This document shows, piece by piece, positions 5,123 through 54,291 of a stretch of 64,000 nucleotides of DNA. The stretch spans positions 96,001 to 160,000 of the forward strand of contig CAVWIG010000018.1 in NCBI GenBank assembly GCA_963754945.1. Reading direction: 5' to 3'. The stretch is from Methanotrichaceae archaeon (GTDB taxonomy: Archaea > Halobacteriota > Methanosarcinia > Methanotrichales > Methanotrichaceae). Under the pieces are notes generated by a model. It was not told where the DNA came from. It saw nothing but the letters and a program-made list of their open reading frames with translations, and searched no databases. The translations under genes and the position numbers were made by a program. Positions within the stretch are counted from its first letter, which is position 1. Each line of letters begins with the position of its first letter.

Positions 5123-5137
5123 AAAAGCGTGATAAGG

Positions 5138-5232
5138 CGCCGCCAACAGGGCTCGAACCTGTGACATTCTGGTAACTGCTTCCCTATCTAGGGTTTAACA
5201 GCCAGACACTCTACCAACTGAGTTATGGCGGC
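5138..5232 (-). tRNA. tRNA-Asn(GTT) with 22-nt intron at 37/38 (5174-5195)
   Basis: GCCGCCA acceptor stem, CTGTTA anticodon loop followed by insert AACCCTAGATAGGGAAGCAGTT, then ACCAGA and T-arm. Confidence 0.92.
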
Positions 5233-13250: not shown

Positions 13251-13319
13251 ATTCTCATCCCCTCAAGACAAGTCATGAAGATTCTCTACAGATATTCATG
13301 TGCGGGGATGAGAATCGAT
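13248..13319. repeat. 14-bp perfect inverted repeat whose left arm overlaps a 17-bp copy of SRP RNA sequence
   Basis: CGATTCTCATCCCC ... GGGGATGAGAATCG; 13251-13267 is identical to 27560-27576. Confidence 0.85.
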
Positions 13320-13766
13320 ACATCTTTGACCCCATCCGTATGCTCTTGAATCTCCGGGAGTTTTCAGTTGATACACTATTATTTTACAACAAAAAGATAT
13401 TTATAATAGAAAACAATAGATATACTTGAAAGGGTTGAAACCCTTTCCGCGAGATGGGAACTGGGATGTAGCAAGGAGGAAAAGTTGGACCGTTTCGCAG
13501 GGCCTCGGTATTGGATTGGGCTGATACTGATCCAGGTACTCGGCCCTCGCTGCGGTTTAAATATGCTGCGCGTCGATAAATCAATTCCTAAGTTAATTAA
13601 CCTAATTAAAAACAAAAGATAGATATAGAAGTAGGTTATAACCTTAAATTGTCGGCGAGAAGTGGTCCTCCTTAAATCTTCTCACCCTCCTCCTAATTAT
13701 CAATGAGAGTTTCGAAAAACTAATCAATCGAAATACTTATATACTATTAATACTATAATATAATGC

Positions 13767-14828
13767 ATGAGGACTCTCATTGATTTTGCCATTCGAGCAG
13801 AATATGCTCGAGTAAAAGCCCTCGGAGATGATCTATCCGAGATCGGATCGTTGATCAATTGGGAGCGTTTCAGATTTTTGGAACCATTGATATACAAAAA
13901 TAAAACTAGCCGCGGAGGTCGTCCGAACATTGACATCGTGATTATGGTGAAAGCTCTCGTAATTCAGCATTGGTTTGGTCTAACAGATCCAGAACTGGAG
14001 CGACAGGTTGCGGATAGGATCTCTTTTCGTATTTTCCTTGGCACCACTGAAGTAATTCCTGATTTCAGCACAGTTTGGCTATTCCGTGAACGTTTGATTA
14101 AGTGCGACGTATACGATGATCTTTGGAATGAGCTTCAAAGGCAGCTCGATGAGATGGGGTTTACTGTAAAGAATGGCACTATCCAGGATGCAACCTTCAT
14201 AACTTCGGACCCAGGTCGGAAGAGGAACAAGAAAGACGAGCAAGGCGGGGACAAAAAGGAAGGTCAAGATTCCGAAGCCACCAGTACGAGCCTGAATCAG
14301 GAGTTTGATAAAGAGCTAATTGGTATTTCAAATAATATTATTGATGACAAGGCCAAACCACAGAGACTCGAAGAAGAGCCAATAAATGAGGGAAGTTGGG
14401 CAAAAAAGGGTGTCAAATCCTTTTTCGGATATAAAGGTCATATCTCAATCGATACCAATTACCACCTTATCAGATATTTTGAGACTACAACTGCTTCTGT
14501 ACACGATAGTCAGGTAGATCTTGGAATTGAAGGGCTACCACGTTACGCCGATAAGGGATATGATGGTGCAAAAACTCGAGGATATGATGCAGCCATGAAA
14601 AAAGCTACAAGAGGTCACAAGCTTGGAATCATAGATCTTCTGAGGAATAAGAGAATCAGTAAAACGCGATCGCACATCGAAAGATGCTTCGCTGTTATGA
14701 AGCGGGGGCATAAGGGAGCACATGTTTATGTAACAACTGTCGCAAGAGCTGGAGTAAAATTCATGATGAATTCGGTCGTTTACAACCTGGAACAGTTGAA
14801 ATATTTAGTGCATAAACAAACAGCCTAG
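13767..14828 (+). CDS. IS5-family transposase
   Basis: GGRP, PDFSTVWLFRE, IQDATFI, GYKGH, HDSQ, ADKGY, IERCF. Confidence 0.93.
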   Translation: MRTLIDFAIRAEYARVKALGDDLSEIGSLINWERFRFLEPLIYKNKTSRGGRPNIDIVIMVKALVIQHWFGLTDPELERQVADRISFRIFLGTTEVIPDFSTVWLFRERLIKCDVYDDLWNELQRQLDEMGFTVKNGTIQDATFITSDPGRKRNKKDEQGGDKKEGQDSEATSTSLNQEFDKELIGISNNIIDDKAKPQRLEEEPINEGSWAKKGVKSFFGYKGHISIDTNYHLIRYFETTTASVHDSQVDLGIEGLPRYADKGYDGAKTRGYDAAMKKATRGHKLGIIDLLRNKRISKTRSHIERCFAVMKRGHKGAHVYVTTVARAGVKFMMNSVVYNLEQLKYLVHKQTA

Positions 14829-14973
14829 CGGAAGCTCTCTAAAAAAGCGCAAAAATTAGAAACAACAAGGTAAATTGAAATCTAATAAGCCAATTTAGGG
14901 GTGAAATATGCTAAAAAACCACTATAAAGATTGAAAATATTAACGCAAGAATTTAAGGCTTCATTAACCAACA

Positions 14974-16062
14974 TAGGACTTACGCAGTTGAAGCATTCGA
15001 CAATGAATAAATAGGATATTTTATATACTCGCGAATTGCCTCACGAATAATTCTTCGCTTAGATTCGAACCAACTCATTCCCATTCTAAGCCTTTCTACT
15101 TCTAATCTGAGAAACGCTCTCAGGGAGAACATTATGTGTGCTCTCTGGGACTGACTTTTTCTTGCTTGACAGCTTTCGACTCCACAGAATTGCTTTATTC
15201 CCCTGTGATATTCCTCAATCTTCCAGGAATATCCACCAATTTTTTCGCGTTTAGCTTCGTCCATCTCCAGCACGTCAGTTGCCCAGTATCCTATGTCGCC
15301 GTCATTAGAGACTATCTTGAATACTTTTATAAAACCATAAGCTTTTAAATGCACATCCCTGCCTTGCAGCGGTATCTCTATCTCCTGGATTTGCATGTTT
15401 TTTGTGTTATCTGGATTCACCAGCCTATTTTTCTTCAATCGGGTCAGCCAGTGCCATCCAGACTTCCGTATGGTTTTGAGATTATCTACACTGGCGTACC
15501 AGCTATCGAAGAGAACAATACGGGGCTGAAAACTTCGTTCTTTTGCTTTGGCAAGCATATCCCGAAAATGATCATTTTTTGTCTTGCCGTCAACATCTAT
15601 ATCGTAGATTCGGAAATCAACGGGAATTATGGCGTTTCCATCTGTCCACAGCAACGTACAAATATTGATTCCATTCACCAGTCGATGCTGTTTTCCACTC
15701 CATTGATGATAAACTAGGCTCATATTTTTGGCATACGGCTTGTCCAACGTCGTATCGTCAATTACCAAGAAACCATTTTGAGGCTGAACAATATTCTTTA
15801 CTTCATTCCACAACGTATCCGTATCTGGAGGCTGTCTTTGTAGAAGACGGGTAAATGCATCATGCGATGAACTATTTTCTCCGACTGGCTGACACCTTGC
15901 GGCTTCGGTACAGGTAAAAACATCTACTGATGCTATCAGAAAGTGAATATAATCAAGATCATCGCACTTGGAAGGATTCAAGTTCAGCCCTATTCCATTT
16001 ATTTGTAGGTCTTAATATAGTCCATGCAATATAAGAAGATTCTGCCAAGTGCGTAAGTCCTA
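14974..16062 (-). mobile_element. IS701-family element (transposase 14980-15981)
   Basis: TIR TAGGACTTACGCA, TSD CCAACA; IDDTTLDKPY, FDSWY, WKIEEYHRGIKQ. Confidence 0.92.
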
Positions 16063-16372
16063 CCAACACTAAATCGAAACCCTCCAATGTTTATTCTGCT
16101 TCGAGATTCTCAATTGCTTTTGTTACGTCGTAGATGGATCGTTAGCAATTGCATCAGCTCTCTGAGCGCTTAAAGTATTGAGCGTATCGCATGATCTATC
16201 TACTCAGTACTCTGTTTGTGTAAGCAGTCGCTCCAAGTAACTCAGTCGATCTAGTTATGGGTAGCGCTAGCAATTTTGTTTGGGGGCTAGAAAAATTCTT
16301 ATATTACAAATATACTTAGATTAGTAAGCGAACTACGGTGTCGAGTGGACTATAATTTCCCGGTGAAAAGCA

Positions 16373-17038
16373 ATGGTAAATAAAAAGAAGATCAGATCTT
16401 TAACCCTATATATTTGCGCAATGCTAACCATAAATGTATTTCTCATCTCATCGATAAGCGCGATGGAATATTCGTTCTACAACGGAACTTATTTTTCGGT
16501 TGAATATCCTGTAACAGGGCAGGTTGAAGAAAACAACACTAGCTTAAATTTCTCTGATGAAAATACGGGTCATTATGTTTCCATCGAGACAGGGAAAAAC
16601 TATCCGACCATCGCTATACTAAATAATTATAGCACTTTTGTTAATGGATCACTTGATGAAATGACCATGCATTTCCTCGAGACGCTAAAATTTAAGTCGC
16701 AAGTAACAAGCCCCGGAACTGGCGGCAAAGAAAATACTAATAATACTCAAGTAATGAGCCCTTACCAAAAAGAAAATGCAAAAAGTTGGAATGACAGGGG
16801 CGTTGATCTCTATGCTCAAGGCAAGTACGATGAGGCATTAAAATGCTATGATAAAGCCATTGAGCTCGATCCACAATTTTCACCGGCCTGGAACAATAAA
16901 GACGCAGCTCTTTTTGCCTTAAATCAGAGGATAAAAATGCATGGCATAGCGAAGGCTTCGCTCTCAAGACGCTCGGTTACACGGTTCAGTCCTATCCACA
17001 ACTCTTTTCATGAATTGCCCTATATTGCTATAGGCTAG
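16373..17038 (+). CDS. exported TPR-containing protein, probably C-terminally truncated
   Basis: Signal/TM segment; AKSWNDRG...YDKAIELDP TPR; second TPR breaks off. Confidence 0.7.
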   Translation: MVNKKKIRSLTLYICAMLTINVFLISSISAMEYSFYNGTYFSVEYPVTGQVEENNTSLNFSDENTGHYVSIETGKNYPTIAILNNYSTFVNGSLDEMTMHFLETLKFKSQVTSPGTGGKENTNNTQVMSPYQKENAKSWNDRGVDLYAQGKYDEALKCYDKAIELDPQFSPAWNNKDAALFALNQRIKMHGIAKASLSRRSVTRFSPIHNSFHELPYIAIG

Positions 17039-17493
17039 TGAGATGAAGGCAAGGTCATTGTGAGCTTACTGGTAATCTCTGGAATGGTACTATGAGTAGG
17101 CAACCTCGTATCGTTGGGATCATCGGATTATTCCAGATATTCTCTAAGTTGCTATATCTCATCCAGGTATCATTCAAGTTGCTTTAGCTCTTCCGCGGTG
17201 AAGCAATCATCTATGCTCTCCCTATTGTATTCCTGTTGTCACTCTTCCTCGGTGAAACCGCATTGTTCTACTCGTGCCTTATCCATATCCGCCGCTATCT
17301 TAGGGTCATAACCAAAAATCAATTCTTCATAAGGCAGTTGTAATTGTAATGCCTTCTCTCTCCCTGTAACATACCAATAGAGTTTCAATTGACCATATCT
17401 GAAATGATCAAAAAGGGAATAAGCTCCGTAGAGCTTAATTGAACAAGGATGGAGTCTACGCCATGCTTCTAAACCAGCCAGGGAGACTAGCAA
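16923..17493 (-). pseudogene. decayed gene of unknown function
   Basis: Frame continues through several stops with internal repeats FTEEE / FTAEEL and QLE*YL / QLREYL. Confidence 0.35.
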
Positions 17494-17762
17494 AAAGCCT
17501 TGATTTCACAAATGCAAACTTAGCATCTTCTTTAAGTACTTAAAGATATGAATTATCATTGGAGGATAATTGAGGCGGATTCTTGCTCCGTTGATAGTTC
17601 TGCTCATGGCGCAGCGGGAGTAAGGGGGCATCCTATGAAGCCTAACGATGGTTTCTGCCCGATCCGTACGGGATACATGTAGACTATATCTGCTAAAGTA
17701 TTAATTTGATACTTACGGATCTGATACGAAAACATTGGTTTGTCAAACAAAGGAGGAAATCT

Positions 17763-18443
17763 ATGAAAAACAAAATAATTGTATTGAGCGACATCCACAT
17801 CGGTGACAATTCGCCGACTTGTTGGTATCAAAAAAGCGTTCATGAACAGTATTTGCTGACAATTCTCGATTGGGTTGTGACAAATGCCGCGAATGTGAGC
17901 GAACTCATCTTGGCAGGTGATGTTGTTGATACCTGGACCTATCCGTTCAATGTTCAACCGCCTAGTTTCGCAACGATCGCCTCGAAAAACCCTAACGTTT
18001 TCGGGCTGCAAGGAGGGCTGGCAAGCGTTCTCGATGCTCTAGGCGGAGCCGTGACGTACATCCCTGGAAATCACGACATGTTAGTAACCGAAGCTGATGT
18101 TGCCTCAGTCACGAGCCCAGGCGGACATCATCTCCGGTTCTCCAGAAAAAATTACAATCCGGGGGGCGATTCGCGCATACTTGTGATGCATGGCAACGAT
18201 TTCACGATGTTCAACGCTCCCGATTTGACTACCAAGTGGGCCCCATTACCTGTCGGACACTTTGTGACCCGGATTGTTGCCACGTATTGGCAATCTCACT
18301 TGCCACCCGGCAAAAATGTATCGGAAATCAGAGATCAAGGTTATCCCAATGGCGTAAACTTGCTGTCGATCATCGAAAATGTACTGAAGAATGTAAATGT
18401 ATCGTACTTGCTCAATATTACGTTGAATTCCCCAATCGAGTGA
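17763..18443 (+). pseudogene. calcineurin-like metallophosphoesterase, probably truncated at ~18398 by IS66
   Basis: SDIH, AGDVVD, GNHD, MHG motifs; last metal motif absent. Confidence 0.75.
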
Positions 18444-19130
18444 GTGCATGGACCAAAAATTATTAATACATATATCTAAAATATTTTGTTTGTGCCAGAT
18501 ATTATACACGAGGCCATAATCAACCTCGATGTAGACAAGATCAACTTCGACGATAAAGAAGCGATGAAAGAATTGATCCTCCAGCTTCTAAGCACAATAG
18601 AGCAATTAGCCCAGTCAAATCAAGAACTCCGCAAAGACAATCAACAGCTAAAGGATGAAATAAACCGGCTGAAAGGTGAGAAAGGCCGTCCTAAAATACT
18701 GCCGGACAATCCTGAATACCAGGCTAATGTGCCGAAGGAAAAACCCAAAAAATGGCATAAAGATAGCAAGAAACCAAAGATAAAAATCGACAGGACAGAA
18801 TACATTAAAATTGATAAATCGATTCTTCCACATGATGCCAAGCATAACGGCTATAGACGGGTCATAAAGCAGAACATAAAATTTGAAACCGACAACGTGG
18901 AATATTGGTTGGAACGCTACTATTCGCCGTCCCTGAAAAAGACCTATGAAGCAGAACTTGCCGAGTCCCTTAAGAACACGGAATTTGGAAGTCATCTGAA
19001 AGCATTCATCGCTTACCTCTACTATGCTGGAAGGGTTACTGAGAATAGGATCCACAAGATCCTAGAAGAGATCGGCATAATAATCTCGGAAGGCGAGATC
19101 TCAAACATACTGACCAAGGAAAAGAGCAAT
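18399..19130 (+). mobile_element. IS66-like transposase 5' fragment cut by IS5
   Basis: Coiled-coil LKDEINRLKGEKGRP, FG..LKAFI, ISEGEISNIL; GTA-starting left end is tentative. Confidence 0.65.
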
Positions 19131-20415
19131 GAGAGTTTCGAAAAACTAATCAATCGAAATACTTATATACTATTAATACTATAATATAATGCATGAGGAC
19201 TCTCATTGATTTTGCCATTCGAGCAGAATATGCTCGAGTAAAAGCCCTCGGAGATGATCTATCCGAGATCGGATCGTTGATCAATTGGGAGCGTTTCAGA
19301 TTTTTGGAACCATTGATATACAAAAATAAAACTAGCCGCGGAGGTCGTCCGAACATTGACATCGTGATTATGGTGAAAGCTCTCGTAATTCAGCATTGGT
19401 TTGGTCTAACAGATCCAGAACTGGAGCGACAGGTTGCGGATAGGATCTCTTTTCGTATTTTCCTTGGCACCACTGAAGTAATTCCTGATTTCAGCACAGT
19501 TTGGCTATTCCGTGAACGTTTGATTAAGTGCGACGTATACGATGATCTTTGGAATGAGCTTCAAAGGCAGCTCGATGAGATGGGGTTTACTGTAAAGAAT
19601 GGCACTATCCAGGATGCAACCTTCATAACTTCGGACCCAGGTCGGAAGAGGAACAAGAAAGACGAGCAAGGCGGGGACAAAAAGGAAGGTCAAGATTCCG
19701 AAGCCACCAGTACGAGCCTGAATCAGGAGTTTGATAAAGAGCTAATTGGTATTTCAAATAATATTATTGATGACAAGGCCAAACCACAGAGACTCGAAGA
19801 AGAGCCAATAAATGAGGGAAGTTGGGCAAAAAAGGGTGTCAAATCCTTTTTCGGATATAAAGGTCATATCTCAATCGATACCAATTACCACCTTATCAGA
19901 TATTTTGAGACTACAACTGCTTCTGTACACGATAGTCAGGTAGATCTTGGAATTGAAGGGCTACCACGTTACGCCGATAAGGGATATGATGGTGCAAAAA
20001 CTCGAGGATATGATGCAGCCATGAAAAAAGCTACAAGAGGTCACAAGCTTGGAATCATAGATCTTCTGAGGAATAAGAGAATCAGTAAAACGCGATCGCA
20101 CATCGAAAGATGCTTCGCTGTTATGAAGCGGGGGCATAAGGGAGCACATGTTTATGTAACAACTGTCGCAAGAGCTGGAGTAAAATTCATGATGAATTCG
20201 GTCGTTTACAACCTGGAACAGTTGAAATATTTAGTGCATAAACAAACAGCCTAGCGGAAGCTCTCTAAAAAAGCGCAAAAATTAGAAACAACAAGGTAAA
20301 TTGAAATCTAATAAGCCAATTTAGGGGTGAAATATGCTAAAAAACCACTATAAAGATTGAAAATATTAACGCAAGAATTTAAGGCTTCATTAACCAACAC
20401 TAAATCGAAACCCTC
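19131..20415 (+). mobile_element. IS5-family element copy 2 (transposase 19193-20254)
   Basis: Same sequence as copy 1; flanks CAAT versus ATTA do not match. Confidence 0.93.
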
Positions 20416-22200
20416 ATTATTATACGTGGTTTTAACGTTTTGAGCGGTTGGCTTCTCCAGCTCGTAAACAACCAAACTATCCGGTTTCCCAGCCAAGTCC
20501 CCATTAGCATCCCAGATTTTCTTTATGTATGGACCTGCCTTGCGTAATCTCGCGTTCTCAAGCTTCTTGAAAGGCTCCTTAATAGCTGGCTTTGGCAATT
20601 CTTCTTCGCACATAACGCCGTAGCCATAGGCGCCCTGTCTAATGATGCGTCTACCCGGTCCCCAAGTTAAAACTCTGTCTATATCTTCTGCCTTCACACC
20701 GATACAGTAGACCTCAGACGGCGCAAGTCCTTTAGGATCTTTGGCCCGTGACCATGCCTGCCACGTCGCCGCATCTACTGAACCTACCCGTATAGTCTGA
20801 CTCTCGATATCCGAATCCGCGAGGCAATCATAAGCATTCTTAGGAACTTCTGCTAGTCCAACTGCAATTATGGTCCTGCGGTCACTCTCTACGCCCATCG
20901 TGTTTGCTGATCTATAATAATCCCAAAAAAGGTTAGGGTATCCTTTGGATAGCGCCTTTTGCAATCTAGCATGTAGTTCCATATTGGGTGCCAACACATG
21001 TATAGGCGCGTTTCCCTTCGCTTCTGATAAATCTTTAATGCGTTCTATGATATCTGGGATTTTAGCATGTTTTTGGTTAGTGGTGCCACTTAACCGGCTG
21101 GAGTCTGCGTAGATTGTCATTTGGCTATTTGTATTGCAAATGTCCGGGAATATAGCCTGCTCTAGTGGCCAATCCACGCCAAGAAATTTACCCCTACCGG
21201 CTATAGACTTGAAGAAGCCGGAGTAAGGCTCAAACAAGGTTCCCGAAACAAAGATTACCGAAGCTTTTTTGGCATAATTCTTTAGATAATCCCTGACAGC
21301 ACCATTCATGCGGCCCAAAGCCCCACATACATAAATCTGACCCGAACCGTCATGACTGATATACGATAACCGGGCAGTATCGTGGCCCAGGATTTCTATG
21401 ATATCGCGTAATTGTAAAACTTCCTCTTCAGTTACATTGAACTCATCATGCTTCTTGGCCAGTTTCCTGAGTTCACCCCAGATCTTGCGCTGCTCGTCCT
21501 CGGTAAGCGTCCACGGGACTTTTAGCTCTCTAACTAGCCAATTGTTTGGGTCATACTCGACCTGTCTCCAAAGATCCTCGACGTCGTACTCTGCAGAATC
21601 GCGTAGTTCTGTCCATTTCTTTAACGCTTTCAGAAGTAAGGGATAATCCTCTCGTATTTTGAGAGCCAAATCCTGTAGGTGGGCTGTGTGCGGAATTTTG
21701 GCAACATCGCTAGTGACAAGGGTATGCGCCTCGTCGAACAATACAACATCGATGTCTTTTAAGATCTCACGAAGGGACTGCGCTCTTTCACTGTCGGAAA
21801 TCATAATGGCTTTTAGTTTCGCAGCAGTCAGCGATTTCATCGATGCGTATGGTTCGCGTTCGATATCGAGTATGCAGCAGTCCTCGGCATATTTGCAGGC
21901 GTCACACTCTCTCGGTATCGACATAGGTAATTGTTCAAGTAATGGCTCTTTGGCAATTTCGTCCTGATTGTATTGACATGCCACGTTTCCATAGATACCG
22001 ACAATGTCCTCATCGGCCTCTTTCATCGTATCGCTGATGATGTTTTTCGTTGGTGATACCAATAGCACTCGTTTATTGGATCTGCCAGCAGCGATGACGA
22101 AACTCGTCGTAAAGCCTGCTCGCGTAACTTTATGGATAGCGTAATCCTTACCGTCAAGGAAGGAAGCTGCAAGAGAAACCCTGCTTTCATCTATTTTCAT
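20416..22200 (-). pseudogene. SF2-type helicase-like replication protein, 3'-truncated by IS5
   Basis: TRAGFTTS (Walker A-like), VSPT, Cys cluster C..CxxC..CC, LFDEAH, SGTL, QAWSR; ORF runs into the IS end. Confidence 0.7.
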
Positions 22201-22390
22201 GCAGCAGCCCTCCAACTAGTTTTTATCAACCAAAAACTATAAATACTATACGAATTACGTATTAGATTAAATTGATTAGAATTAACTGTCATAACTTTAC
22301 CTTTTTTGAACGGCGCTGCGAACGTTCAATTTCTATTTTCTATTGAGCGTTTTGCTTTGGCTGTTTACTGCTTTTTTGTCAATATTTGTC

Positions 22391-22573
22391 TCAATTACTG
22401 CCACTCTCATGTACATCTATCGGCTTGACGGTGAGACACTCCCCATCAAATGTGAATTCAATTCGATCAAATTCTTTCCATGCATTCGCAACGGGCCGTG
22501 GTATGCTGATCAGTGCTGCCTTGTTGTCAACAGATTTCGTGAGTCTGCGCTTAAAGGTTAAATTCATCGTCAT
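22391..22573 (-). CDS. AbrB/MazE/SpoVT-like DNA-binding protein
   Basis: RRLTKS...LISIPRPV...DRIEFTFDGECLTVKP. Confidence 0.7.
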   Translation of the reverse strand: MTMNLTFKRRLTKSVDNKAALISIPRPVANAWKEFDRIEFTFDGECLTVKPIDVHESGSN

Positions 22574-22671
22574 GTTTATTTTCAACACTCCGTTTTAAAA
22601 TAGGCCATAAAAAATTTTTTTAACTCCTTAAAGCGGTTCTACTATTTATACTTTTTGGTAACAATCAGCAT

Positions 22672-22908
22672 CTACTGCTTTACCAAGATATCTTTCTGAT
22701 CATGAGTTTCCCAGATCTCCAAGACCCTAAGCTTAGAGATGAGAATCATTCTCCCGTCCAGCTTCTGAATGTTTAAGAAGTCCTTAGATATCGATAGCAA
22801 GCGACCACACAACGGAAATCTATCGTTACTCTCTGTTACGATGCCGACAACCTTCCCGATAAAAGGGCTAAATTCATCTTTCAAATCTAACTGATTCTTC
22901 ACTATCAT
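22672..22908 (-). CDS. small Sm/LSm/Hfq-fold-like protein
   Basis: FIGKVVGIV...LCGRLLSISKDFLNI..LDGR.ILISK..V..I pattern. Confidence 0.5.
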   Translation of the reverse strand: MIVKNQLDLKDEFSPFIGKVVGIVTESNDRFPLCGRLLSISKDFLNIQKLDGRMILISKLRVLEIWETHDQKDILVKQ

Positions 22909-22931
22909 ATTTCAATTTCACTCCAATTCTA

Positions 22932-23120
22932 TCAGACGATCCCATGAACCCGTTCGTATTCCCTATTGTATTCAACGAACAGGTCGAACTCGGGACTCTG
23001 CATCCATGCCAGTTTCCGCTTCATGAATTCCTGATGCAGTTGACGCTCTTCTTCACTCTCAAATGGATCCCAATCTGACCGTAAGCTTTTTATACTTTTA
23101 CTTGAATTACTAAGTTGCAT
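22932..23120 (-). CDS. hypothetical protein (62 aa)
   Basis: GGTGA RBS; in the co-directional cassette. Confidence 0.55.
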   Translation of the reverse strand: MQLSNSSKSIKSLRSDWDPFESEEERQLHQEFMKRKLAWMQSPEFDLFVEYNREYERVHGIV

Positions 23121-23188
23121 ATTTTTATCACCTTTTTGGATCAGTGCTACCAACACTGAATCCTTTTAACCTTTATTCAGCATTCTCC

Positions 23189-23305
23189 TGCTGTGTTGCA
23201 TAACTCAGAACCACGATGTCGATTGCTATCGATTTTGCTCATTTACCTATCATTACTGATATGCTCCGATGCATATCGATTTTAGCAAATTTATGCAACA
23301 CAGCA
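23189..23305. mobile_element. MITE family A (117 bp)
   Basis: TIR TGCTGTGTTGCATAA / TTATGCAACACAGCA, 8-bp TSD CATTCTCC. Confidence 0.9.
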
Positions 23306-23535
23306 CATTCTCCTAATCCCAATTTGTTTATCTTGTCGCGTCTATCTTGTTCTACCTTTACACCGATATGGACGCATTTCCAAATCATGCCTGAAATTGT
23401 CATTCCTAAGTTGTTAGCCATTTGCTTCAATTGTTTCTTCTCATTCGGAGTCACCCTAAGAGCGATAATATCAGTCATTTTGTCTGAGTCTACCGATTTT
23501 TGTCTTTTTGTCTGCCTAACCATGATTCTCACCAA
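23239..23535 (-). CDS. ribbon-helix-helix (CopG/MobC-like) protein, C-terminus extended by MITE
   Basis: IIALRVTPNEKKQLKQMANNLGMTISGMI. Confidence 0.75.
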   Translation of the reverse strand: MVRIMVRQTKRQKSVDSDKMTDIIALRVTPNEKKQLKQMANNLGMTISGMIWKCVHIGVKVEQDRRDKINKLGLGECAVLHKFAKIDMHRSISVMIGK

Positions 23536-23582
23536 CGTTATAACGACGTAAAATAGTGAAGACGATAAAAAAGATCTGGGAG

Positions 23583-24062
23583 TTAATATTTTGCCAAGAT
23601 CTTCTTCGCTTCTCTGACCCGGCTTTCAAGGTCCGAAATGATTGGACCTTTTTCGTTTTTAACCCGGTCTCGCTTATCTAAGGCGCTTTGAACTTCTGGC
23701 AGTCCCTCCGCTTCATGAGTGGACATGGCCGCATTCGTTCGAATCGCACGTTCCAAGGAATGACGAGCATCCAGCTCTGCATCAGAGAGGATCCGGCGAG
23801 CTCTCGATAGCTTGTCCAGAAGGCCGCTCAGTGTAGGTTCTCCATCAGTGAGCTTTAGGAATGCCTCGTGGTCTTTCTTAACGTCAGCTAAATGCTTATC
23901 AGCAGCTTCCACATTAGATATCGCGTCTACTGCCCCATCCCCAACGAACTCGGCACCCCATCCGCTGGCCGTCTTCTTAGGTCGAATGTATACGAGAAGA
24001 GCTGCCTGCTTGCTCGATAGATCTGCCTGTGCCGCTTCATAGGCTTCCTCGATACCACTCAT
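23583..24062 (-). CDS. helical hypothetical protein
   Basis: 159 aa; ATGA overlap with upstream gene. Confidence 0.7.
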   Translation of the reverse strand: MSGIEEAYEAAQADLSSKQAALLVYIRPKKTASGWGAEFVGDGAVDAISNVEAADKHLADVKKDHEAFLKLTDGEPTLSGLLDKLSRARRILSDAELDARHSLERAIRTNAAMSTHEAEGLPEVQSALDKRDRVKNEKGPIISDLESRVREAKKILAKY

Positions 24063-24766
24063 AACTGCTCCTGCTCGCGTTGAGCTTTCGAAAGGGCATC
24101 CCGCTTCCTATTCAGGGTCTGACGTAGACGGGATTTTGCTGCTTCAAGGTCATCATCGCCTTCCTCGGTCGTCTGACCGAATGCTCCCACAACAGGCGTT
24201 CGAGTATCTTGATCTACACCGCCTACACGATCAGGCGTGTTCCGCTTCTTCGCAAGCGTGTCCGCTAATCTTACCTTTGCGGTAGCCAGTGAAGTAGCCA
24301 GTTCCCCTTCTGCCTCTTCTCGATTGCCAGGTACGACATTAGATTTTGTCGAAAGTGTTCTGTGTAGCTGTGCCCTCAATTCGTCGTGCGTCTGGTTAAA
24401 TTTCATAGCAGGTCTCGGATTGATGATTTCGGGATGCTCGTCCAAATAAGTGAATCCCACATCTCTGAATGCCTCATAATGCTGTCTGGCCCTCTCGGGA
24501 CTGCGATTAGCCTGGTTTAGGATCATGAGAAAGTCATCATAATCCGGATTGAATTGGGTGTTGCGCGGTGATTCTATCTCTGGAGTTCCCTTGAGCGTTG
24601 CCGCTAGCTCTGCTTTTGCCTTCTCGACACCGGGACCTCTGGAATTGGACTTTATGAACCGTTGGCGTGCTGCCTCTAGCTCGTCGGAAACGAGCACGTC
24701 GTCTGGTTTGCCGGATAGTGTCTCCTTCAAGATGCTTTTGGCTCTAAAATAGCGATAATCTTTCAT
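24059..24766 (-). CDS. hypothetical protein with repeated amphipathic helices
   Basis: GGTGA RBS; repeated A(K/R)xxLxxTL motif. Confidence 0.7.
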   Translation of the reverse strand: MKDYRYFRAKSILKETLSGKPDDVLVSDELEAARQRFIKSNSRGPGVEKAKAELAATLKGTPEIESPRNTQFNPDYDDFLMILNQANRSPERARQHYEAFRDVGFTYLDEHPEIINPRPAMKFNQTHDELRAQLHRTLSTKSNVVPGNREEAEGELATSLATAKVRLADTLAKKRNTPDRVGGVDQDTRTPVVGAFGQTTEEGDDDLEAAKSRLRQTLNRKRDALSKAQREQEQL

Positions 24767-24969
24767 TTTATGTCACCTATAACGGACAAACTATCAGTGT
24801 ATTGTGAACATCATCATAAACCATTTCAACATGGGTGTAACCACTATCGGCCCAAATATTGAAAATCGGCTTCGGAATGCTGAACAATCCATAGCAGCCC
24901 GAGCTTAAAATTTTTCTAAAGAACCTCATCAAACTATAGAATCCGTAAAAAAGACAAAAAAAGGAAGGG

Positions 24970-25563
24970 TCATGCTTTAGCCCCTTCCGGTTGTGTCTGC
25001 TCTACGATTGTGTTGTTAGAACCTCGAGCATTCAAGGTTGCTTGCCTCTGTGTGAGAGCCGATTTGTGGGCCTCTAAAGTTCTGATAAGGTCGTCGATCT
25101 TGGCGATGACCGAAGTGATATCCTCGTTGGGTATTCCATCGGCAGTGATTGCAGACTTTATGTTGTCCTTCGCTTTGTCGAAATTGTCCTTGGATGCTCT
25201 GGTTGTCGTCTTGGGCTTCGGTGGAATGATCTGATTGACAATCTGTCGGACTTCCTTGTAGGTCACTGCAATCTTCGGTTGCTCGTCCATCTCCTTTTGC
25301 TCTGCCTTCTCGATGATCAGATCGAGTGCCTTATCTAGATCAGCATCATTCTTTAGGGCGTGTAGTGGACGAGCTGCATTTTCACTAAGGATCTCTCCGA
25401 TCGGACGAGAACTGTCCTTTAATATTTCACTTTGTGCTACTTTTGCCGATATATTGTTCATCAAAGGTATGTGCTTCAGAATTCTCTTTACCGTTTCTGG
25501 GTTTTTCTTACAGAAACCGTTGTTCTCAGCCATTGCTCGATAGAATTGCTCGCAGCGTACCAT
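24970..25563 (-). CDS. hypothetical protein, possibly HTH/ParB-like
   Basis: LSENAARPL...VTYKEVRQIV, C-terminal coiled coil. Confidence 0.65.
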   Translation of the reverse strand: MVRCEQFYRAMAENNGFCKKNPETVKRILKHIPLMNNISAKVAQSEILKDSSRPIGEILSENAARPLHALKNDADLDKALDLIIEKAEQKEMDEQPKIAVTYKEVRQIVNQIIPPKPKTTTRASKDNFDKAKDNIKSAITADGIPNEDITSVIAKIDDLIRTLEAHKSALTQRQATLNARGSNNTIVEQTQPEGAKA

Positions 25564-26034
25564 CTAAACGACCCCCGCTGCTGTTGGTTTCGGTAACAAA
25601 ACCGAAACTCTCATATACTTATGCGTACTCGCGCTTGTATTCAACATTTTGGACATACCGTCCACCGTCCTTTCGGGTTTTTTTACTCGGGACTTACCAG
25701 AGAATCGAGCCAAAACCCGAAGCGGGCGGCTGCATGCAGTGATACTATATATAGTCTTCTATCGGGCTCGCCCGATATTGTTATTTTTGCAAATATCACA
25801 ATTTCACAAAATTTATAAAATTTGCTGTCGCCATTTATCTGCCGCGTGCATATGATCCCATCACAATCAATAGCAGCTTCGATGCGGCACCTACACCAGT
25901 TTGATGCCGTCAGTACTCCGCTGGGAGCAAGATTGTCGTTGCACTTCTGTCCCGCTCAGTAATTACCCAGATCTTGATACCGCTAGTGCCCCTGGTGTCG
26001 CTAAAATATGACTAAGTGGGAATTTAGGCATCCA

Positions 26035-26205
26035 TTAAGCCTTTTTGCTCTGTGTAACTGTATCCTCTGCACTTCTCTTTTCAGCTTCATGAATCAGCGC
26101 GAGTCGGGCCAGGTTGACATCTCTTAGGCTGTTAAGAACGCTCAAAGCTAGGTCAATCTCAGCGACATCCTCGGTGATGGCTTTTTTGAAATCTACAGTG
26201 ACCAT
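26035..26205 (-). CDS. small coiled-coil protein (56 aa, not in ORF track)
   Basis: MVTVDFKKAITEDVAEIDLALSVLNSLRDVNLARLALIHEAEKRSAEDTVTQSKKA. Confidence 0.55.
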   Translation of the reverse strand: MVTVDFKKAITEDVAEIDLALSVLNSLRDVNLARLALIHEAEKRSAEDTVTQSKKA

Positions 26206-26216
26206 GAAGATCATTC

Positions 26217-26339
26217 CTACTTGGCCTCTACCAACAACTGCTCCAACTCGCCTACGGCAGCATCCCGGATTTCCTGAAGGACTCCTAGGATCTCGTTTAT
26301 CTGTTCGATCCGGTTTTCCAGTTCTGACTTAGTGGGCAT
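26217..26339 (-). CDS. small coiled-coil protein (40 aa, not in ORF track)
   Basis: MPTKSELENRIEQINEILGVLQEIRDAAVGELEQLLVEAK; TATA-like TTTATAAG at ~26399-26406. Confidence 0.55.
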   Translation of the reverse strand: MPTKSELENRIEQINEILGVLQEIRDAAVGELEQLLVEAK

Positions 26340-26490
26340 GAACAATCATCTCGCTTCAAATTTTATCCTATTTAGTTAATAGTAATATTAAGTGTGAACT
26401 TATAAACTTATGGTTGCTTGTATTATGCGATATACGCTACTCTATGTCTAGAATTACAGGTATTATACAGTTTAATGGGTATATCTATCT

Positions 26491-27360
26491 TCAAACGTCC
26501 AGGTACTTACTCTGTTTTTCACGAAGCGTCGCGATATCTATGTGCAGGTATCTCGCAGTGGTCCTTATACTGGAATGCCTCATCAACTGCTGCAAAGAAT
26601 AGATATCGCAACCGTGCTTAACCATAATTGAAGCCGGACTATGCCTTCCCCAGACATGTACGCTTCCTCGCGACTTTACTCCAGCGGCTTTCTTACATTT
26701 ATTAAACATCGTCTCGATCCCCCTCAGCTTCCACTTGTGGAACTGATCGGTATAAAATAATGGGAATCGCCCGTCAATCTCGATCCTAGGTCGAATCTGA
26801 AGATATTGCTCTATGATCTGTATGCAAGCTGGTGGAATAGGCAATATCGCAGACTTGCCGAACTTACCATCCCGGATTCGCAAGGTCATAGTCTTAAGAT
26901 CTAAATCATCATCTTCTAAATTCATTAAATCGCCAGCTCTTAGCATGCAATAGAACATTATACTTAACATTGTGTAGTATTTTAAGTTTGTTGTCGCGTT
27001 CAAGATCGCCAAAACCTCTAATTCGCTGAAGAAATAAGGAACCTTGTTGCTTACCTTCATGTAGGGTAATGTCAGCTCTAAACCCCTTGATTTATAAAAG
27101 GCTTTTAATGCTGCGCCCCAGATATTTACAGTGCTCCTAGCCAACTTTGACTCGGCTAGATCACCATGCCATTTCTTAGCATCCTCAATCGTTGGGTTTG
27201 GGCTTCCCGTTTCCTTCAAGAACCGCTTTACTGGATGTAGATATGTCTCTACGCATGCTTGCCGGTAACCATGCTCATTCAGCCAACGCTCGAACCTCCT
27301 TAGAGCAGGATTAACATCCATAGAAATTTGCCGATTCCAGTCCACCTTGATCTTATCCAT
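26491..27360 (-). CDS. tyrosine recombinase/integrase (XerD-like)
   Basis: R (MLRAGD), K (GKFGK), HxxxRH (HVWGRH), H (MRHSS), Y (TARYLH). Confidence 0.93.
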   Translation of the reverse strand: MDKIKVDWNRQISMDVNPALRRFERWLNEHGYRQACVETYLHPVKRFLKETGSPNPTIEDAKKWHGDLAESKLARSTVNIWGAALKAFYKSRGLELTLPYMKVSNKVPYFFSELEVLAILNATTNLKYYTMLSIMFYCMLRAGDLMNLEDDDLDLKTMTLRIRDGKFGKSAILPIPPACIQIIEQYLQIRPRIEIDGRFPLFYTDQFHKWKLRGIETMFNKCKKAAGVKSRGSVHVWGRHSPASIMVKHGCDIYSLQQLMRHSSIRTTARYLHIDIATLREKQSKYLDV

Positions 27361-27506
27361 TTCAAGCACCGGTCCCGCGCGACGTAATACGCTTACCCGC
27401 TGTTCTCGGTGAAGACATTCAAAACAAAATCAATATATTCGAGGATAGATCCTGGTTTCCTGTTGCCTTGCCACGCGACAATTATGGAGCCACATAACGA
27501 TTAAAT

Positions 27507-27820
27507 GGCGGGCTTGCCAACGGTTGCCAGCAGCGCCACAGGTCAGTTTATCCAGGAGCATTCTCATCCCCTCAAGCCTGTAAGCGACAGTTACCCGCAG
27601 TGGGTCTGCTCCCTTCCGGGCCTGAACCGGTGCCTGCAATTATGGAGCCCAAACCTGCCCTCCGGCAGGCTCAAACGCCGGTGCTATCCCTACAGGACGG
27701 AGAATCATGGTCAACATCTGGACTGACAAGCGACGCCTAAAGTCGTCCGCCAGCTTCTAGCCCCCCGCTTGTCGACGATTTCGGGTTGCAGGTGACGCCG
27801 AACCACCCGGACTGCCCGCC
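27507..27820 (-). ncRNA. ffs: signal recognition particle (7S) RNA
   Basis: Helix 8 GGTTCAGGCCCGGAAGGGAGCAG, helix 6 CCTGCCGGAGGGCAGG, complementary ends GGCGGGC/GCCCGCC, 314 nt. Confidence 0.93.
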
Positions 27821-27878
27821 ACTTTTAATAAAGAGTTCGATAGCAATAAAGCTAACGCAAAAAGTGGAGAGGAATTTT

Positions 27879-28130
27879 ATGGAAGATACCGACCAGAACG
27901 TAGGGTTCATCATGGGGAGCAACCAACGCCAAAGGGTGCTCCAGGTTCTCGGCGCCAAAGGGGCGCTCAGCGCTGATAAGATTGCCAAGATCGATCACAC
28001 ACCCGTACCTGGGGTAAGGAAGACCCTGGAGGAGCTGGCAGCAAGAAATGTCGTCGCCGAGAAGGAAGGAGTCTGGAGCCTGACCGATCTGGGCATTGAG
28101 TTAGAGAAAGAGATGAAGAAGAGGGGCTGA
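27879..28130 (+). CDS. winged-helix DNA-binding protein
   Basis: GSNQRQRVL...IAK...VRKTLEEL...WSLTDLG. Confidence 0.8.
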   Translation: MEDTDQNVGFIMGSNQRQRVLQVLGAKGALSADKIAKIDHTPVPGVRKTLEELAARNVVAEKEGVWSLTDLGIELEKEMKKRG

Positions 28131-28134
28131 CCGG

Positions 28135-28662
28135 ATGAAAGTGATGGAGGCCATCGCAGAGCGTCGATCCATCCGGAGCTTCTCGAGCCAGCCTGTCGAG
28201 GATGAGAAGCTCTTACGGGTTCTGGAGGCAGGACGCCTGGCCCCCTCGGCGAGGAACATGCAGGACTGGAAGTTCGTGGTTGTAAAAGACCCAGGCCTAC
28301 GCCAGAGGCTGGCTGAGGCAGCCAGGAACCAGGAGTTCGTCAGCCAGGCGCCCGTTGTGATCGTGGCTTGTGGCACCTCGGACTACGTCATGACCTGCGG
28401 CCAGCTCACCTATCCCATCGACGTGGCCATCGCCGTGGACCATATGACCCTGGCAGCAGTGGAAGAGGGCCTGGGAACCTGCTGGATTGGAGCCTTCTAC
28501 GAGGATAAGGCGAAAGAGATTCTGGGAGTACCCAAGACTATCAGGGTGGTCGCTCTGCTGCCCCTGGGCTATCCAGCTGCAGAGCCTGCAAAGACCGCCA
28601 AGGCTATTCTCAAACCACGTAAACCCCTGGAAGAGATAGTAGTTTACGATGGATGGAAGTAA
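28135..28662 (+). CDS. nitroreductase family protein
   Basis: RRSIRSF, APSARN.QDW, GLGTCWIG, LPLGYPA. Confidence 0.93.
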   Translation: MKVMEAIAERRSIRSFSSQPVEDEKLLRVLEAGRLAPSARNMQDWKFVVVKDPGLRQRLAEAARNQEFVSQAPVVIVACGTSDYVMTCGQLTYPIDVAIAVDHMTLAAVEEGLGTCWIGAFYEDKAKEILGVPKTIRVVALLPLGYPAAEPAKTAKAILKPRKPLEEIVVYDGWK

Positions 28663-34882: not shown

Positions 34883-36146
34883 CCTGTAGGATTGCGAAGG
34901 ACGGAGCGGGAAGTCCCCATCCTTCAGGGTGGGGATGAAAGCGGAGTCCTTTGCCCTGGTTTCTGTCTAACAATAACTACTTAACCTCAAACTACAAGCA
35001 TCTATCAATGCTTAAATCGTATCGCTATAGACTCATGCCAACAAAATCTCAAGTTCACATCCTAGAAAGACAACTTGAGATTTGCCGGTGGGCCTACAAC
35101 GATACATTAGCGTACCGAAAGAATGCTTGGGAGAAAGAACAACGAACAGTCAAGCGTTTCGAGACTCAAGATAGATTGCCTCAATTGAAGCTAGAAATAC
35201 CCGAACTCAAAGAAGTCTATTCCATGACTCTTCAGAATGTTACTCTTCGTGTCGAGCTGGCGTTCAAAGCCTTCTTCCGAAGAGTCAAAGCGGGAGAAGA
35301 ACCAGGATACCCTAGATTCAAGGGAAAGGGTAGGTACGATAGCATTACCTATCCCCAATCTGGTTTTGGATTAGATTCTGGAAAGCTTCATCTATCTAAG
35401 ATCGGCGATATCAAGATCAAACTCCATCGACCTATTGAGGGAGATATCAAGACCTGTGCTCTTCGGAGATCAATGACAGGCAAATGGTTTGCTTGCTTCT
35501 CTGTTGAGATGTCAGACATGCCCCTCTCTCCCTGGAAAGATGGTTCCGTCGTTGGAATCGATGTAGGATTGGAAAGCTTCGCAACTCTCTCAAATGGTGA
35601 GAAGATCTCCAATCCTCGGTTCTTCCGAGATGAGGAAAAGGAGCTTGCGAGAGTCCAAAGAAAGCTCTCTAAAGCTCCGAAAGGCACTCCAGAGCGGAAA
35701 GCTGCCCTCAAGGTAGTCGAGCGAGTCCATGAAAGGATTGCTAACAAAAGACAAGATTTTGCCAACCAAGTAAGTCGTGTGCTGGTAGATCGCTTTGGGG
35801 TAATTGTCTTTGAGGATCTCGATATCCAAAACATGCTCAAAAACCATTGTCTAGCCAAATCAATCTCGGATGTGGCTTGGGGAAAGCTGGTGAAAGCAAC
35901 TCAGAGCAAAGCAGCATATGCTGGCTCTAAGGTTGTGCTAGTCGATCCAAGAAGCACATCTCAGATTTGTTCCAGGTGTGGCCTTGTAGTCAAAAAGGAT
36001 CTCTCTGAACGAGTCCATAGCTGCTCGGAATGTGGCTTGTCTATGGATAGAGATCTCAATGCAGCGGTCAACATTCTGAGATTGGGGATGCAATCTCTTC
36101 GCAAAAGCGATAGAAGTCCCCGCCCTTTAGGACGGGGAGCGTTCAC
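34883..36146 (+). mobile_element. tnpB: IS200/IS605-family solo TnpB element copy 1 (CDS 35008-36165)
   Basis: RuvC GIDVG / FEDL / DRDLNAA, zinc finger; left- and right-end hairpins, right end finishes TTCAC; left boundary approximate. Confidence 0.9.
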
Positions 36147-36171
36147 TGAATCACGCCTTCATTAGACTGAC

Positions 36172-38240: not shown

Positions 38241-39539
38241 GGTCGTGAATTGTTAATAGGTTTTAATTTTGATATAGGAGAAGGTCAATAGTTCATGCAA
38301 GCTCCAGATGTGATCAATTAAGCCGGCTTGCTTCGCAGGACAATTGAGCCTTGTTATCCCTCGCTCGTCCCTGTATTTCAGAGAGCGATGCTTTCTGCAG
38401 TAATTGAAGTTTGCGAAATAGAGGGTCATTTGATGATCTAATTCCATATTTTTCTTAGAAAAGCCTATTGTTTTCCTGGATATGCGGTTATTATCTTGTC
38501 TGCATGTTAGATTATGTCGTTCTATATAGCTAGTAGATATCATCTTGAGTTTTATATTCGCCCCAAATATGATCCTTTTAACAACTTTTTTAAGTCTGCC
38601 TTCTGCCCGAATCTTAATAACCTGCGCGTAGTTTAACAGTTCGTCTACTATTAATTTAGGACTTCGAGGTCGTCCTCGTTTGCCAGTTGGTGCAAACAGT
38701 TGTAACTTTCCATATTGCTTTCGGAGAGCTATTGTATATAATTTTAATCCATCAGTTACAAATAATGGTATTGATCTCAGTATTTTCGCGGTATTTGTGC
38801 TGTGTTGCGTAACTCAGGACCGTGATGCTTACAGATGTCGATTTTGCTCATTTATCGATCATCACTGGTATTGCCCCGATGCATATCGATTTTGCCAGAG
38901 TTATTCAACACAGCAGGTATTTGCAACGAGCTTATCTGCGATTTTCTGAGACCGCTCACCAACTACATGGGAAAGCACCAGACGACATTCAGTAGCCATG
39001 CTTATCCAGATCCAATTCCCAGAGTCTTCGAATTCATCTTTTCTGGGCAACGTTTTTTTTTCCACAAAAGTCCAGAGTTCGTCCATCTCTACTTTTGGTG
39101 TCTCGATGTCTTTCAAAATAACCTCATTTACCCGTTCACAATGCTCTCCAGCTCTTGAGATCCAGGTGCTTACAGTAGACGGCTGTACCTCAAGAGTTTC
39201 TGCGATACCTAAAATGCTCATTCCGCGCATAGACATTTTTAAAGCCAGCTTGACTTTATCTTCATCTGTCCGTAGGTCATATAATGGCGTGTTAGTTCTA
39301 TCGCAGAACTTAGTTGTGCATGAATGGCAGACGAATTTTCTACCCTTGCCGGAACTTCTCTCATAGGTTCCGTAAACAGTAACGTTTCCTTTTCCAGCAA
39401 TTCCAAATAGTGCACACTTTTCATTTGGACATGCTACATCCAAAAATCGAGGTTTTGGACCTCTTAATCCCATTTGCTACACCCCATATAGCATAGTAGA
39501 CAGGGGCTATTTATAACAGCCTATAATTGATTCACGACC
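38241..39539 (-). mobile_element. IS1-family element (single-ORF transposase 39473-38253 split by MITE)
   Basis: TIR GGTCGTGAAT / ATTCACGACC, TSD AGATTTCG; zinc finger, EMDELWTFV, TSYIERHNLT. Confidence 0.9.
38798..38915. mobile_element. MITE family A (118 bp)
   Basis: TIR TGCTGTGTTG / CAACACAGCA, TSD GGTATTTG; homologous to 23189-23305. Confidence 0.9.
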
Positions 39540-54234: not shown

Positions 54235-54291
54235 AAGAGATGAAATAAGTTAATATTCACGGACTTCAATTCATCGTGTAGGAGGGGACGA

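Follow-up and report, generated by a model that had tools for sequence, protein, structure and literature searches.

Among acetoclastic methane producers, Methanothrix-type archaea are of major importance; very little has been described of their mobile elements. A 64,000-nucleotide (nt) stretch from the genome of a Methanotrichaceae archaeon (assembly GCA_963754945.1, contig CAVWIG010000018.1, positions 96,001 to 160,000; here called the window) contains a gene cassette between positions 20416 and 27360. The cassette starts with an integrase gene, continues with several small open reading frames (ORFs) and ends with a gene for a large helicase. What kind of element is this cassette, and is it complete? 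An earlier analysis, here called the sequence-only reading, had interpreted it as a possible virus satellite or cryptic replicon. Our data indicate that the cassette probably represents one arm, the integrase-proximal one, of an integrative element that is plasmid-like and capsid-less and was later inactivated by an insertion sequence (IS). According to the best-supported reading, the element family is specific to Methanotrichaceae. Genomes, contigs and loci used for comparison are referred to by G, C and L numbers, the window's genome being G000.

A replicase gene cut by an insertion sequence

All named ORFs from the integrase to the helicase are located on the minus strand within 20308-27369 (Table 1), in the order that the sequence-only reading had given. 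The match of the integrase to the Pfam family Phage_integrase (PF00589) covers profile positions 6-169 of 172, and the tyrosine-recombinase residues R...HxxR...Y can be read in its translation (LRAGD, HVWGRH, TTARYLH). The ribbon-helix-helix (RHH) protein scored 28.6 bits against the NikA-like family at a cut-off of 27. The labels of the Sm-like and AbrB-like proteins are less secure. A profile of the six-member Sm-like family found Rpp29 (E 0.003) and the Hfq-like protein MJ1435 (E 0.004-0.007) among PDB structures, which weakly suggests an Sm-like protein. Two of the eight members of the AbrB-like family match Pfam MazE_antitoxin (best E 0.075). The best Foldseek rows for the AlphaFold2 (AF2) model of the AbrB-like protein, with a predicted local distance difference test (pLDDT) value of 78, were AbrB, MazE, VapB, SpoVT, Sso7c4, pSSVi C56 and pSSVx C68, all with E values of at least 0.56; here too the predicted structure hints weakly at the assigned family. 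Recognisable capsid or conjugation genes had been reported as absent, and indeed no capsid, terminase or type IV secretion system (T4SS) families were found in the cassette proteins using Pfam or PHROGs. The 16 ORFs scanned between 16373 and 27369 contain no terminase large subunit, portal or HK97-fold capsid, and no relaxase or T4SS family was detected among the proteins scanned, only the NikA-like RHH protein.

The gene previously labelled as a large helicase is, judged from its sequence, a replicase fragment that lacks the primase half and the C-terminal domain. In ORF 20308-22215 only 600 residues belong to the replicase, and the last 35 codons run into the neighbouring IS. Replicase homologues are encoded in 11 of the 105 Methanotrichales genomes (the window's own counted). 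Complete homologues are 944-997 amino acids (aa) long and have the domain order XPD/DinG-like helicase, Prim-Pol (primase-polymerase) and four-cysteine end domain. In the AF2 model of the 969-aa replicase of locus L023 (pLDDT 76), the first ~600 residues match DinG, CasDinG and XPD (Foldseek E 1e-13 to 1e-9), and residues ~640-840 match the CAPP Prim-Pol (Foldseek E 4e-9, template modelling score 0.65-0.69 by target). The family profile recovered the CAPP Prim-Pol structure 7nqd with an E value of 1e-24. Pfam AEP-TOTE (PF22548) matched seven of the eight full-length homologues scanned from genome loci (E 2e-27 to 5e-10; L023 gave no match and L026 was outside the scan) and all eight homologues scanned from IMG/VR, and the C-terminus of one homologue also matched DNA_primase_lrg.

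The helicase part matches PADLOC typeIV_DinG (E 2e-13). In the replicase alignment the DEAH box (D172/E173/H175) is invariant, as are three cysteines between the Walker motifs (C91, C118, C124), with a fourth (C115) being nearly so. The helicase part of the window is predicted to be an XPD/DinG-family superfamily 2 (SF2) helicase with two RecA-like motors and putative Fe-S cysteines. The archaeo-eukaryotic primase (AEP) motifs DxD and SGxxxYH are present in full-length homologues; the window copy ends upstream of the Prim-Pol domain, and the lost half was not found elsewhere in the 88%-complete assembly of the same genome.

With XPD, DinG and CasDinG the replicase family shares the fold of its first ~570 residues, the DEAH box and the four conserved cysteines between the Walker motifs. 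It differs from them in sequence (10-14% identity) and in being fused to a primase-polymerase, presumably as the replicative helicase of a mobile element. The Prim-Pol domain is homologous to CAPP of Marinitoga (PDB 7nqd, 7nqf and 7p9j) and to AEP-TOTE, but here it is located behind an XPD/DinG-like helicase and is found in mobile elements and viruses instead of a CRISPR or TOTE context; in contrast to CAPP, the window protein has lost the domain. The passages on Prim-Pols from Kazlauskas et al. (2018) describe fusions to various helicases, including remote SF2-like C-terminal domains, and contain no helicase-first XPD-type fusion. The locus adds a replicase with the helicase first and the Prim-Pol second, which occurs both in capsid-less elements and in tailed viruses of methanogens. 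When 1.84 billion cluster representatives were searched with the replicase profile, 5110 matches with E <= 1e-3 and 352 with E <= 1e-30 were obtained, many of them 900-1100 aa long and spanning both replicase halves. Of 31 pattern matches in GTDB species genomes, 29 encode relatives of the replicase; they belong to Methanothrix, Methanosaeta, Methanotrichaceae, Methanolobus, Methanosarcina and Methanococcoides records, with a few located on small contigs binned with bacteria or Micrarchaeota. A word-index homologue search returned seven proteins with uninformative names.

Position 20416 had been taken as the left edge of the cassette; it is the junction with the IS and not an element end. The genome of 2.97 Mb contains 35 copies of this IS with a length of at least 1200 nt, which are ~100% identical and mostly flanked by 4-bp target duplications. 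The copy next to the cassette is flanked by CAAT and ATTA and has no target-site duplication, which points to a rearrangement or deletion and not to a simple insertion. By reading of the flanks, about 15 of the 35 copies lack matching 4-bp duplications, suggesting that many IS-mediated rearrangements accompanied a recent and massive burst of this one IS. The locus is a clear case of such a burst eroding elements of this type. Another IS copy, on C21, has ATTA as its left flank and was a candidate for the partner junction; it was discarded, since no replicase match is present there.

The cassette forms the integrase-proximal (right) part of a 14.3-kb low-GC tract (13251-27559). The GC content is 0.39-0.48 over ~13.2-27.4 kb and 0.51-0.57 in the flanks. 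Additional copies of the IS in the window are located at 13705-14973 together with 16062-16084, at 52825-54235 and at 57327-57888, among others.

The SRP RNA gene as integration target

The integrase gene starts 136 nt from the 3' end of a full-length signal recognition particle (SRP) RNA gene. For a survey of integrase sites, SRP RNA positions (determined in 91 of 105 Methanotrichales genomes) were crossed with integrase matches (45 of 105 genomes, E <= 1e-20). The integrase clade was found directly behind the SRP RNA gene in eight of the 105 genomes, representing four genera. Intact integrases at this site are encoded in the window's genome, in G051 (78% identity), on contig C115 of G035 (77%) and in G070 (60%); decayed fragments are present in G056, G100, G002 and G084. 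At a distance of 3.3-11 kb downstream, the final 96-150 nt of the SRP RNA gene, corresponding to window positions 27499-27631, are repeated once each in L068 and L072 and twice in L071. The two attachment site (att) copies of L068, proximal and distal, are identical over a 57-nt block, beyond which they differ in the direction of the RNA 3' end. Such a pattern would be expected of an element that carries a version of the RNA 3' terminus of its own. The locus adds a clade of archaeal integrases for which the SRP RNA gene serves as the target.

A 2021 review on archaeal tyrosine recombinases (PMC8371274) treats tRNA targets at length and mentions neither "SRP" nor "signal recognition". Archaeal integrative plasmid-like elements, as described there, resemble the family reported here in having the integrase beside the att site, a stable-RNA 3' end as a target that is rebuilt, a primase-type replicase, no virion genes and tandem arrays; they differ in the target, which here is the SRP RNA gene (PMC8371274). 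In addition, the replicase found here has the helicase first and the Prim-Pol second, and the integrase is not split by integration, in contrast to the "suicidal" type of SSV, pTN3 and pT26-2. In bacteria, phage phiEf11 integrates into the SRP RNA gene ffs, according to a 2025 report (PMC12540744), and thus likewise represents a tyrosine-integrase element with an SRP RNA gene as attB. There, the target is the bacterial 4.5S RNA gene, the core is 27 nt long and the element is a complete tailed phage, whereas here an archaeal 7S-type SRP RNA, a repeat of ~57-130 nt and capsid-less islands are found (PMC12540744). Our literature search, which had partial coverage and was confined to main texts, retrieved no description of the SRP RNA as an archaeal att site and none of the element family.

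The left edge of the low-GC tract is marked by an exact 17-nt copy of the att core. This 17-mer falls within the identity block of the L068 type and is in direct orientation. Synteny with the same-genus genome G010 ends at base 13250, immediately before the 17-mer, and past this breakpoint G010 runs into DNA that is found on contig C24 of the window's genome. The 17-mer was rejected as a canonical distal att, since neither of its flanks is SRP RNA-like; it is possibly a secondary or eroded distal junction. It also makes up the left arm of an inverted repeat of 12 nt (ATTCTCATCCCC ... GGGGATGAGAAT), the arms of which are separated by 41 nt; this repeat is located at 13251-13322, exactly at the G010 synteny break. 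Elsewhere in the window's genome, SRP RNA 3'-end fragments with 84-88% identity are present at C27:24852-24946 and C28:135734-135793, which may represent either scars of former att sites or attP-like sites belonging to other elements.

The data directly show how the cassette is built, that it is truncated, that the SRP RNA gene is its target, and that it belongs to a family without structural genes. For the intact members of the family we infer excision, replication as a plasmid and regulation by small proteins. Recombination by the unsplit tyrosine integrase would take place between the chromosomal SRP RNA gene and the element's copy of its last ~100-130 nt, and insertion would restore an intact SRP RNA. 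The excised circle would be copied by the element's own three-part replicase, the four-cysteine domain of which resembles a primase large subunit. The AbrB-like, RHH and Sm-like small proteins would serve as regulators and the helical 159-, 197- and 235-aa proteins as accessory factors. The window copy is dead as a replicon: the IS cuts the replicase after codon 600, and a rearrangement presumably removed the primase half together with the distal arm. The integrase/att pair and the replicase could become parts of genetic tools for a group that has no such tools.

Capsid-less relatives and viral kin

A second cassette with the same gene order is located on contig C15 (amino-acid identities in Table 1). 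It is preceded by 64 nt that match the 3' part of tRNA-Leu(CAA) perfectly, and it is truncated by an IS630-like transposase gene that directly follows it. Contig C22 contains a third tRNA-Leu copy (60 nt), adjacent to an HSDR_N-like gene and to ORFs of 297 and 83 aa; the 83-aa ORF is homologous to ORFs following the replicase in L028 (59%) and L023 (38%). These ORFs are followed by another copy of the same IS. The arm on C22 is probably the distal arm of the C15 sister element. Together, C15:11820-27816 (L080) and C22:9037-15051 (L081) represent a tandem array at tRNA-Leu(CAA), the 3' 60-64 nt of which are present three times.

Parts of the order recur in four additional loci. L023 contains, in this order, the integrase, an AbrB-like protein, the 159-aa type, a second AbrB-like protein, the Sm-like protein and the replicase; in L028 the 159-aa type is followed by a NikA-like RHH protein, an AbrB-like protein and the replicase; and L030 encodes the 197-aa type, the 51-aa type and the replicase. 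At the SRP RNA site of G035 (L069) the order is integrase, 42-aa type, AbrB-like, 159-aa type and Sm-like, and the helicase-Prim-Pol replicase is replaced by two different P-loop proteins of 518 and 398 aa. As far as can be judged from the homologous genes, the recurrence of the gene order, for which the sequence-only reading had advised a synteny search in Methanotrichales, is beyond chance. The accessory block travels with different integrases (SRP RNA, tRNA-Ser and tRNA-Leu targets) and with different replicases. Since accessory genes are shared at three targets, they show the modular behaviour of one mobile unit.

The intact relative in G035 (L023/L067, contig C135) is 16,082 bp long; its two ends are marked by a perfect direct repeat of 64 nt, which derives from the 3' part of tRNA-Ser(GCT). 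Local repeat searches in L023-L025 had given no att site; the repeat of L023 was detected by a genome search outside the local stretch. The element encodes the integrase, two AbrB-like proteins, the 159-aa type, the Sm-like protein, the replicase and six small ORFs behind the replicase. Its low-GC cargo block (L067:1455-10000) contains an E2-E1-JAB fusion (PADLOC E1-E2 / JAB), an MBL-fold LmuA-like protein, a pentapeptide-repeat protein and unknowns, and by these similarities looks like defence genes. No terminase, portal or capsid gene (Pfam, PHROGs) and no T4SS gene was found in this 16.1-kb element. The locus thus adds a family of small capsid-less replicons able to carry defence genes.

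Related replicases are also encoded by tailed viruses. Ten IMG/VR loci have replicases that are 25-30% identical to the L023 protein, and five of the ten show morphogenesis genes in the flanks covered: a terminase large subunit is encoded in L051, L052, L053 and L056, capsid and portal in L050 and L051. In the genome loci L027 and L029 the gene for the terminase small subunit (TerS) directly follows the replicase gene (PHROGs E 1e-11 to 1e-12), and then the contig ends. A maximum likelihood tree was calculated for the helicase part (20 rows). The window replicase is in clade A together with L020, L021, L023 and L028; this clade is starred (98/99) and contains neither viral rows nor structural genes. 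Clade B consists of L024, L026, L027 and L029 and the viral rows V049 and V050, the latter having capsid and portal and being nearly identical to L026. Six other viral rows form a distant clade. Capsid or terminase genes in intact homologous elements, which would have spoken against the sequence-only reading, were observed only at a distance: they adjoin the replicases of 25-30% identity in tailed viruses, which fall in other clades of the tree, and were not found in the att-delimited relative of the cassette.

These data allow the possible explanations to be compared. Satellites of the type of phage-inducible chromosomal islands (PICIs) consist of an integrase, small regulators and a primase-helicase and have no structural genes. 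The cassette resembles this layout, and it shares with PICIs and with pSSVx/pSSVi the integrase, small regulators, a replicase, AbrB-like small proteins and the lack of capsid genes. As true virus satellites, elements of clade A would retain an integrase, regulators and a replicase of their own but travel in capsids supplied by tailed Methanothrix viruses resident in the same host; their helical ORFs would interfere with these viruses or redirect them. The replicase family is common to clade-A elements and tailed viruses, G035 contains both the clade-A element L023 and the clade-B virus-type locus L029 with TerS, two matches to terminase large subunits are present elsewhere in the window's genome (C21 and C8), and the model of the AbrB-like protein weakly resembles pSSVi C56 and pSSVx C68. 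Against this, no TerS, cos/pac mimic or capsid-related gene was detected in the cassette or the 16-kb relative using Pfam and PHROGs, which divergent archaeal proteins may escape. A comparison of 25 accessory proteins (11 from the window cassette, counted without the truncated replicase, and 14 from relatives) with the ten replicase-bearing viral loci gave no match at E <= 0.01; only the replicase family is common to the elements and their candidate helpers. In addition, the intact G035 relative carries defence-like cargo as ordinary islands do. A satellite nature is therefore unlikely. We likewise consider it improbable that clade A represents the archaeal counterpart of PICIs for the tailed Methanothrix viruses of the sister clades, arisen by loss of the morphogenesis module and with the 159-, 197- and 235-aa proteins acting on the helper. 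The satellite idea is an analogy of layout, kept alive by the replicase kinship, the co-occurrence in G035 and the terminase matches, and is unsupported by any packaging-related evidence. Of the two possibilities raised by the sequence-only reading, the cryptic replicon is supported, in the form of a capsid-less integrative replicon family, and the satellite, with neither TerS nor a capsid-redirecting gene found, is not; its suggestion that the helical ORFs act on a helper is likewise unsupported, as these ORFs have no detectable relatives of known function and nothing links the cassette to a helper virus.

The cassette could also be the early/replication arm of a tailed provirus, the structural module of which was located behind the replicase and was lost by an IS-mediated deletion. 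Terminase genes do directly follow the replicase in clade-B and other viral loci (L051, L053, L027 and L029); moreover, the window is cut inside the replicase, whatever followed is lost, and the IS without target duplication points to deletion or rearrangement. However, the window replicase groups with L020, L021, L023 and L028 and not with viral rows, and the whole att-delimited element of L023 has no structural genes. In L021, Peptidase_S9 and Peptidase_C1 genes, taken as host genes, are found ~1.5 kb past the replicase, and the C22 distal arm contains, up to the att copy, small post-replicase ORFs and the HSDR_N-like gene but no morphogenesis genes. Both the tree and the capsid-less relative with its att boundaries speak against a provirus remnant, which appears quite improbable. 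Alternatively, the low-GC tract could be a patchwork in which unrelated islets and IS have accumulated at an integration hot spot, with the cassette being chromosomal cargo without replicon function. SRP-site islands elsewhere are small and carry unrelated cargo (SIR2-like, restriction endonuclease and radical-SAM genes), tandem remnants are present in L071, and the window tract is rich in IS. Since the same accessory genes occur together with integrase and replicase at SRP RNA, tRNA-Ser and tRNA-Leu targets, as one mobile unit, we regard such a patchwork as very improbable.

Several points weigh against a capsid-less integrative element, which we nevertheless prefer. The term capsid-less is based on negative searches, and archaeal capsid proteins can escape Pfam and PHROGs. 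Replicases of the sister clades are encoded by tailed viruses, so that the element could descend from a virus or depend on one. The extent of the element in the window is tentative, since no proper distal repeat was found, only the 17-mer with its non-SRP flanks. Neither an excision joint nor a contig bridging position 20416 was found among the matches listed when the assembled contigs of four public runs were compared with 18500-28500; in the contigs of these runs the cassette is present at low depth in one soil-metagenome run, the depth of the IS being far higher. Finally, ORFs in the relatives were called with a simple custom script instead of a gene finder.

Accessory genes and other features

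Table 1. Features of the low-GC tract and the adjoining SRP RNA gene in the window. Identity: amino-acid identity to the C15 cassette.
Feature	Position	Strand	Identity	Remarks
SRP RNA gene, full length	27506-27821	-		Rfam RF01857, 180.7 bits, model positions 1-317
Proximal att region (3'-terminal ~100-130 nt of SRP RNA gene)	27499-27631			likely crossover block 27540-27597
Tyrosine integrase, intact, 292 aa	26491-27369	-	37%	ATG at 27360; Phage_integrase E 6e-24
42-aa ORF	26217-26345	-		weak matches in L068 and L069 (40-42% over 25-33 aa) at the same post-integrase place
59-aa ORF	26035-26214	-		70-73% identical copies on own-genome contigs C10, C29, C34
197-aa protein	24970-25563	-	56%	conserved N-domain and two invariant cysteines, then helical tail
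51-aa AbrB-like ORF	24777-24932	-	96%	aligns with AbrB-like family; not listed in the sequence-only reading
235-aa protein	24059-24766	-	85%	helical, low complexity
159-aa protein	23583-24062	-	55%	helical; homologues in L023, L028, L069, C15
RHH (NikA/Arc-like) DNA-binding protein, 98 aa	23239-23535	-	100% (residues 1-77)	Pfam NikA-like E 1.5e-6
74-aa ORF (62 aa from ATG)	22932-23156	-	73%	
Sm/Hfq-like protein (putative), 78 aa	22672-22908	-	50%	homologues immediately upstream of replicase in L023, L069
AbrB/SpoVT-like small DNA-binding protein (putative), 65 aa	22391-22588	-		homologues in L021, L023 (two), L028, L030, L069
Replicase gene, first 600 codons (XPD/DinG-like SF2 helicase)	20416-22215 (ORF 20308-22215)	-		alignment with 944-997-aa homologues
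IS, 1,285 bp	19131-20415	+		DUF772 + DDE_Tnp_1 transposase; inverted repeats GAGRGTTTCGA
Coiled-coil ORF cut by IS	18486-19184			low-GC tract
Metallophosphoesterase	17706-18443			low-GC tract
TPR protein	16373-17038			low-GC tract
Rest of low-GC tract	13268-19130			two nested IS
17-nt exact direct copy of att core	13251-13267 (= 27560-27576)			left edge of low-GC tract

Among the accessory genes of the family, the 159-aa type is the most widely conserved one. The helical 159-, 197- and 235-aa proteins have no match in Pfam, PHROGs or PADLOC. A feature search of the ESM Atlas with the 159-aa family gave nothing usable, only generic helical look-alikes, and a single-sequence search of the genome contigs with the 159-aa protein returned no relative. 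In L030 (L030:3088-4407, contig C26 of genome G016) a 439-aa homologue of the 197-aa protein has the same N-domain joined to a PCNA-like sliding clamp (PDB 1rwz, E 6e-7, residues 192-430); this fusion hints at a replication-associated role of the 197-aa type. The 59-aa and 197-aa ORFs are separated by 470 nt; when scanned for repeats, this gap revealed short AT-rich palindromes only and no iterons.

The last ~21 codons of the RHH ORF derive from a dispersed repeat at 23189-23305. While residues 1-77 are identical on C15, residues ~76-98 match C19, C23, C26 and C34. The repeat is ~118 nt long, and a second window copy at 38798-38915 is 81% identical to the first; copies are also present on C19, C23, C26 and C34. 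The repeat, which replaces the 3' end of the RHH gene, may be a miniature inverted-repeat transposable element or an IS end.

The two terminase-large-subunit matches in the window's genome are located at C21:28315-28905 and C8:1982-2563, the one on C21 lying 3.3 kb from an integrase gene (C21:32235-33050). They possibly mark resident tailed proviruses. In the IMG/VR tailed-virus contigs L052 (11917-13275) and L053 (14727-16683) we observed an Mtd-type tropism determinant in one and disaggregatase-related proteins in the other; the Mtd-type determinant hints at a diversity-generating retroelement.

In the window itself, a second low-GC, IS-rich tract is located at 35-45 kb and contains further transposase-like ORFs. 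Two of the ORFs in this region, 34951-36165 (404 aa) and 42226-43347 (373 aa), are ~80% identical at the DNA level and look TnpB-like (IS200/IS605-type) by eye. At 5136-5232 a 97-nt tRNA-like gene adjoins tRNA-Met; ARAGORN called a 4-base anticodon, the Rfam tRNA score is 60 bits, and the gene probably contains an intron.

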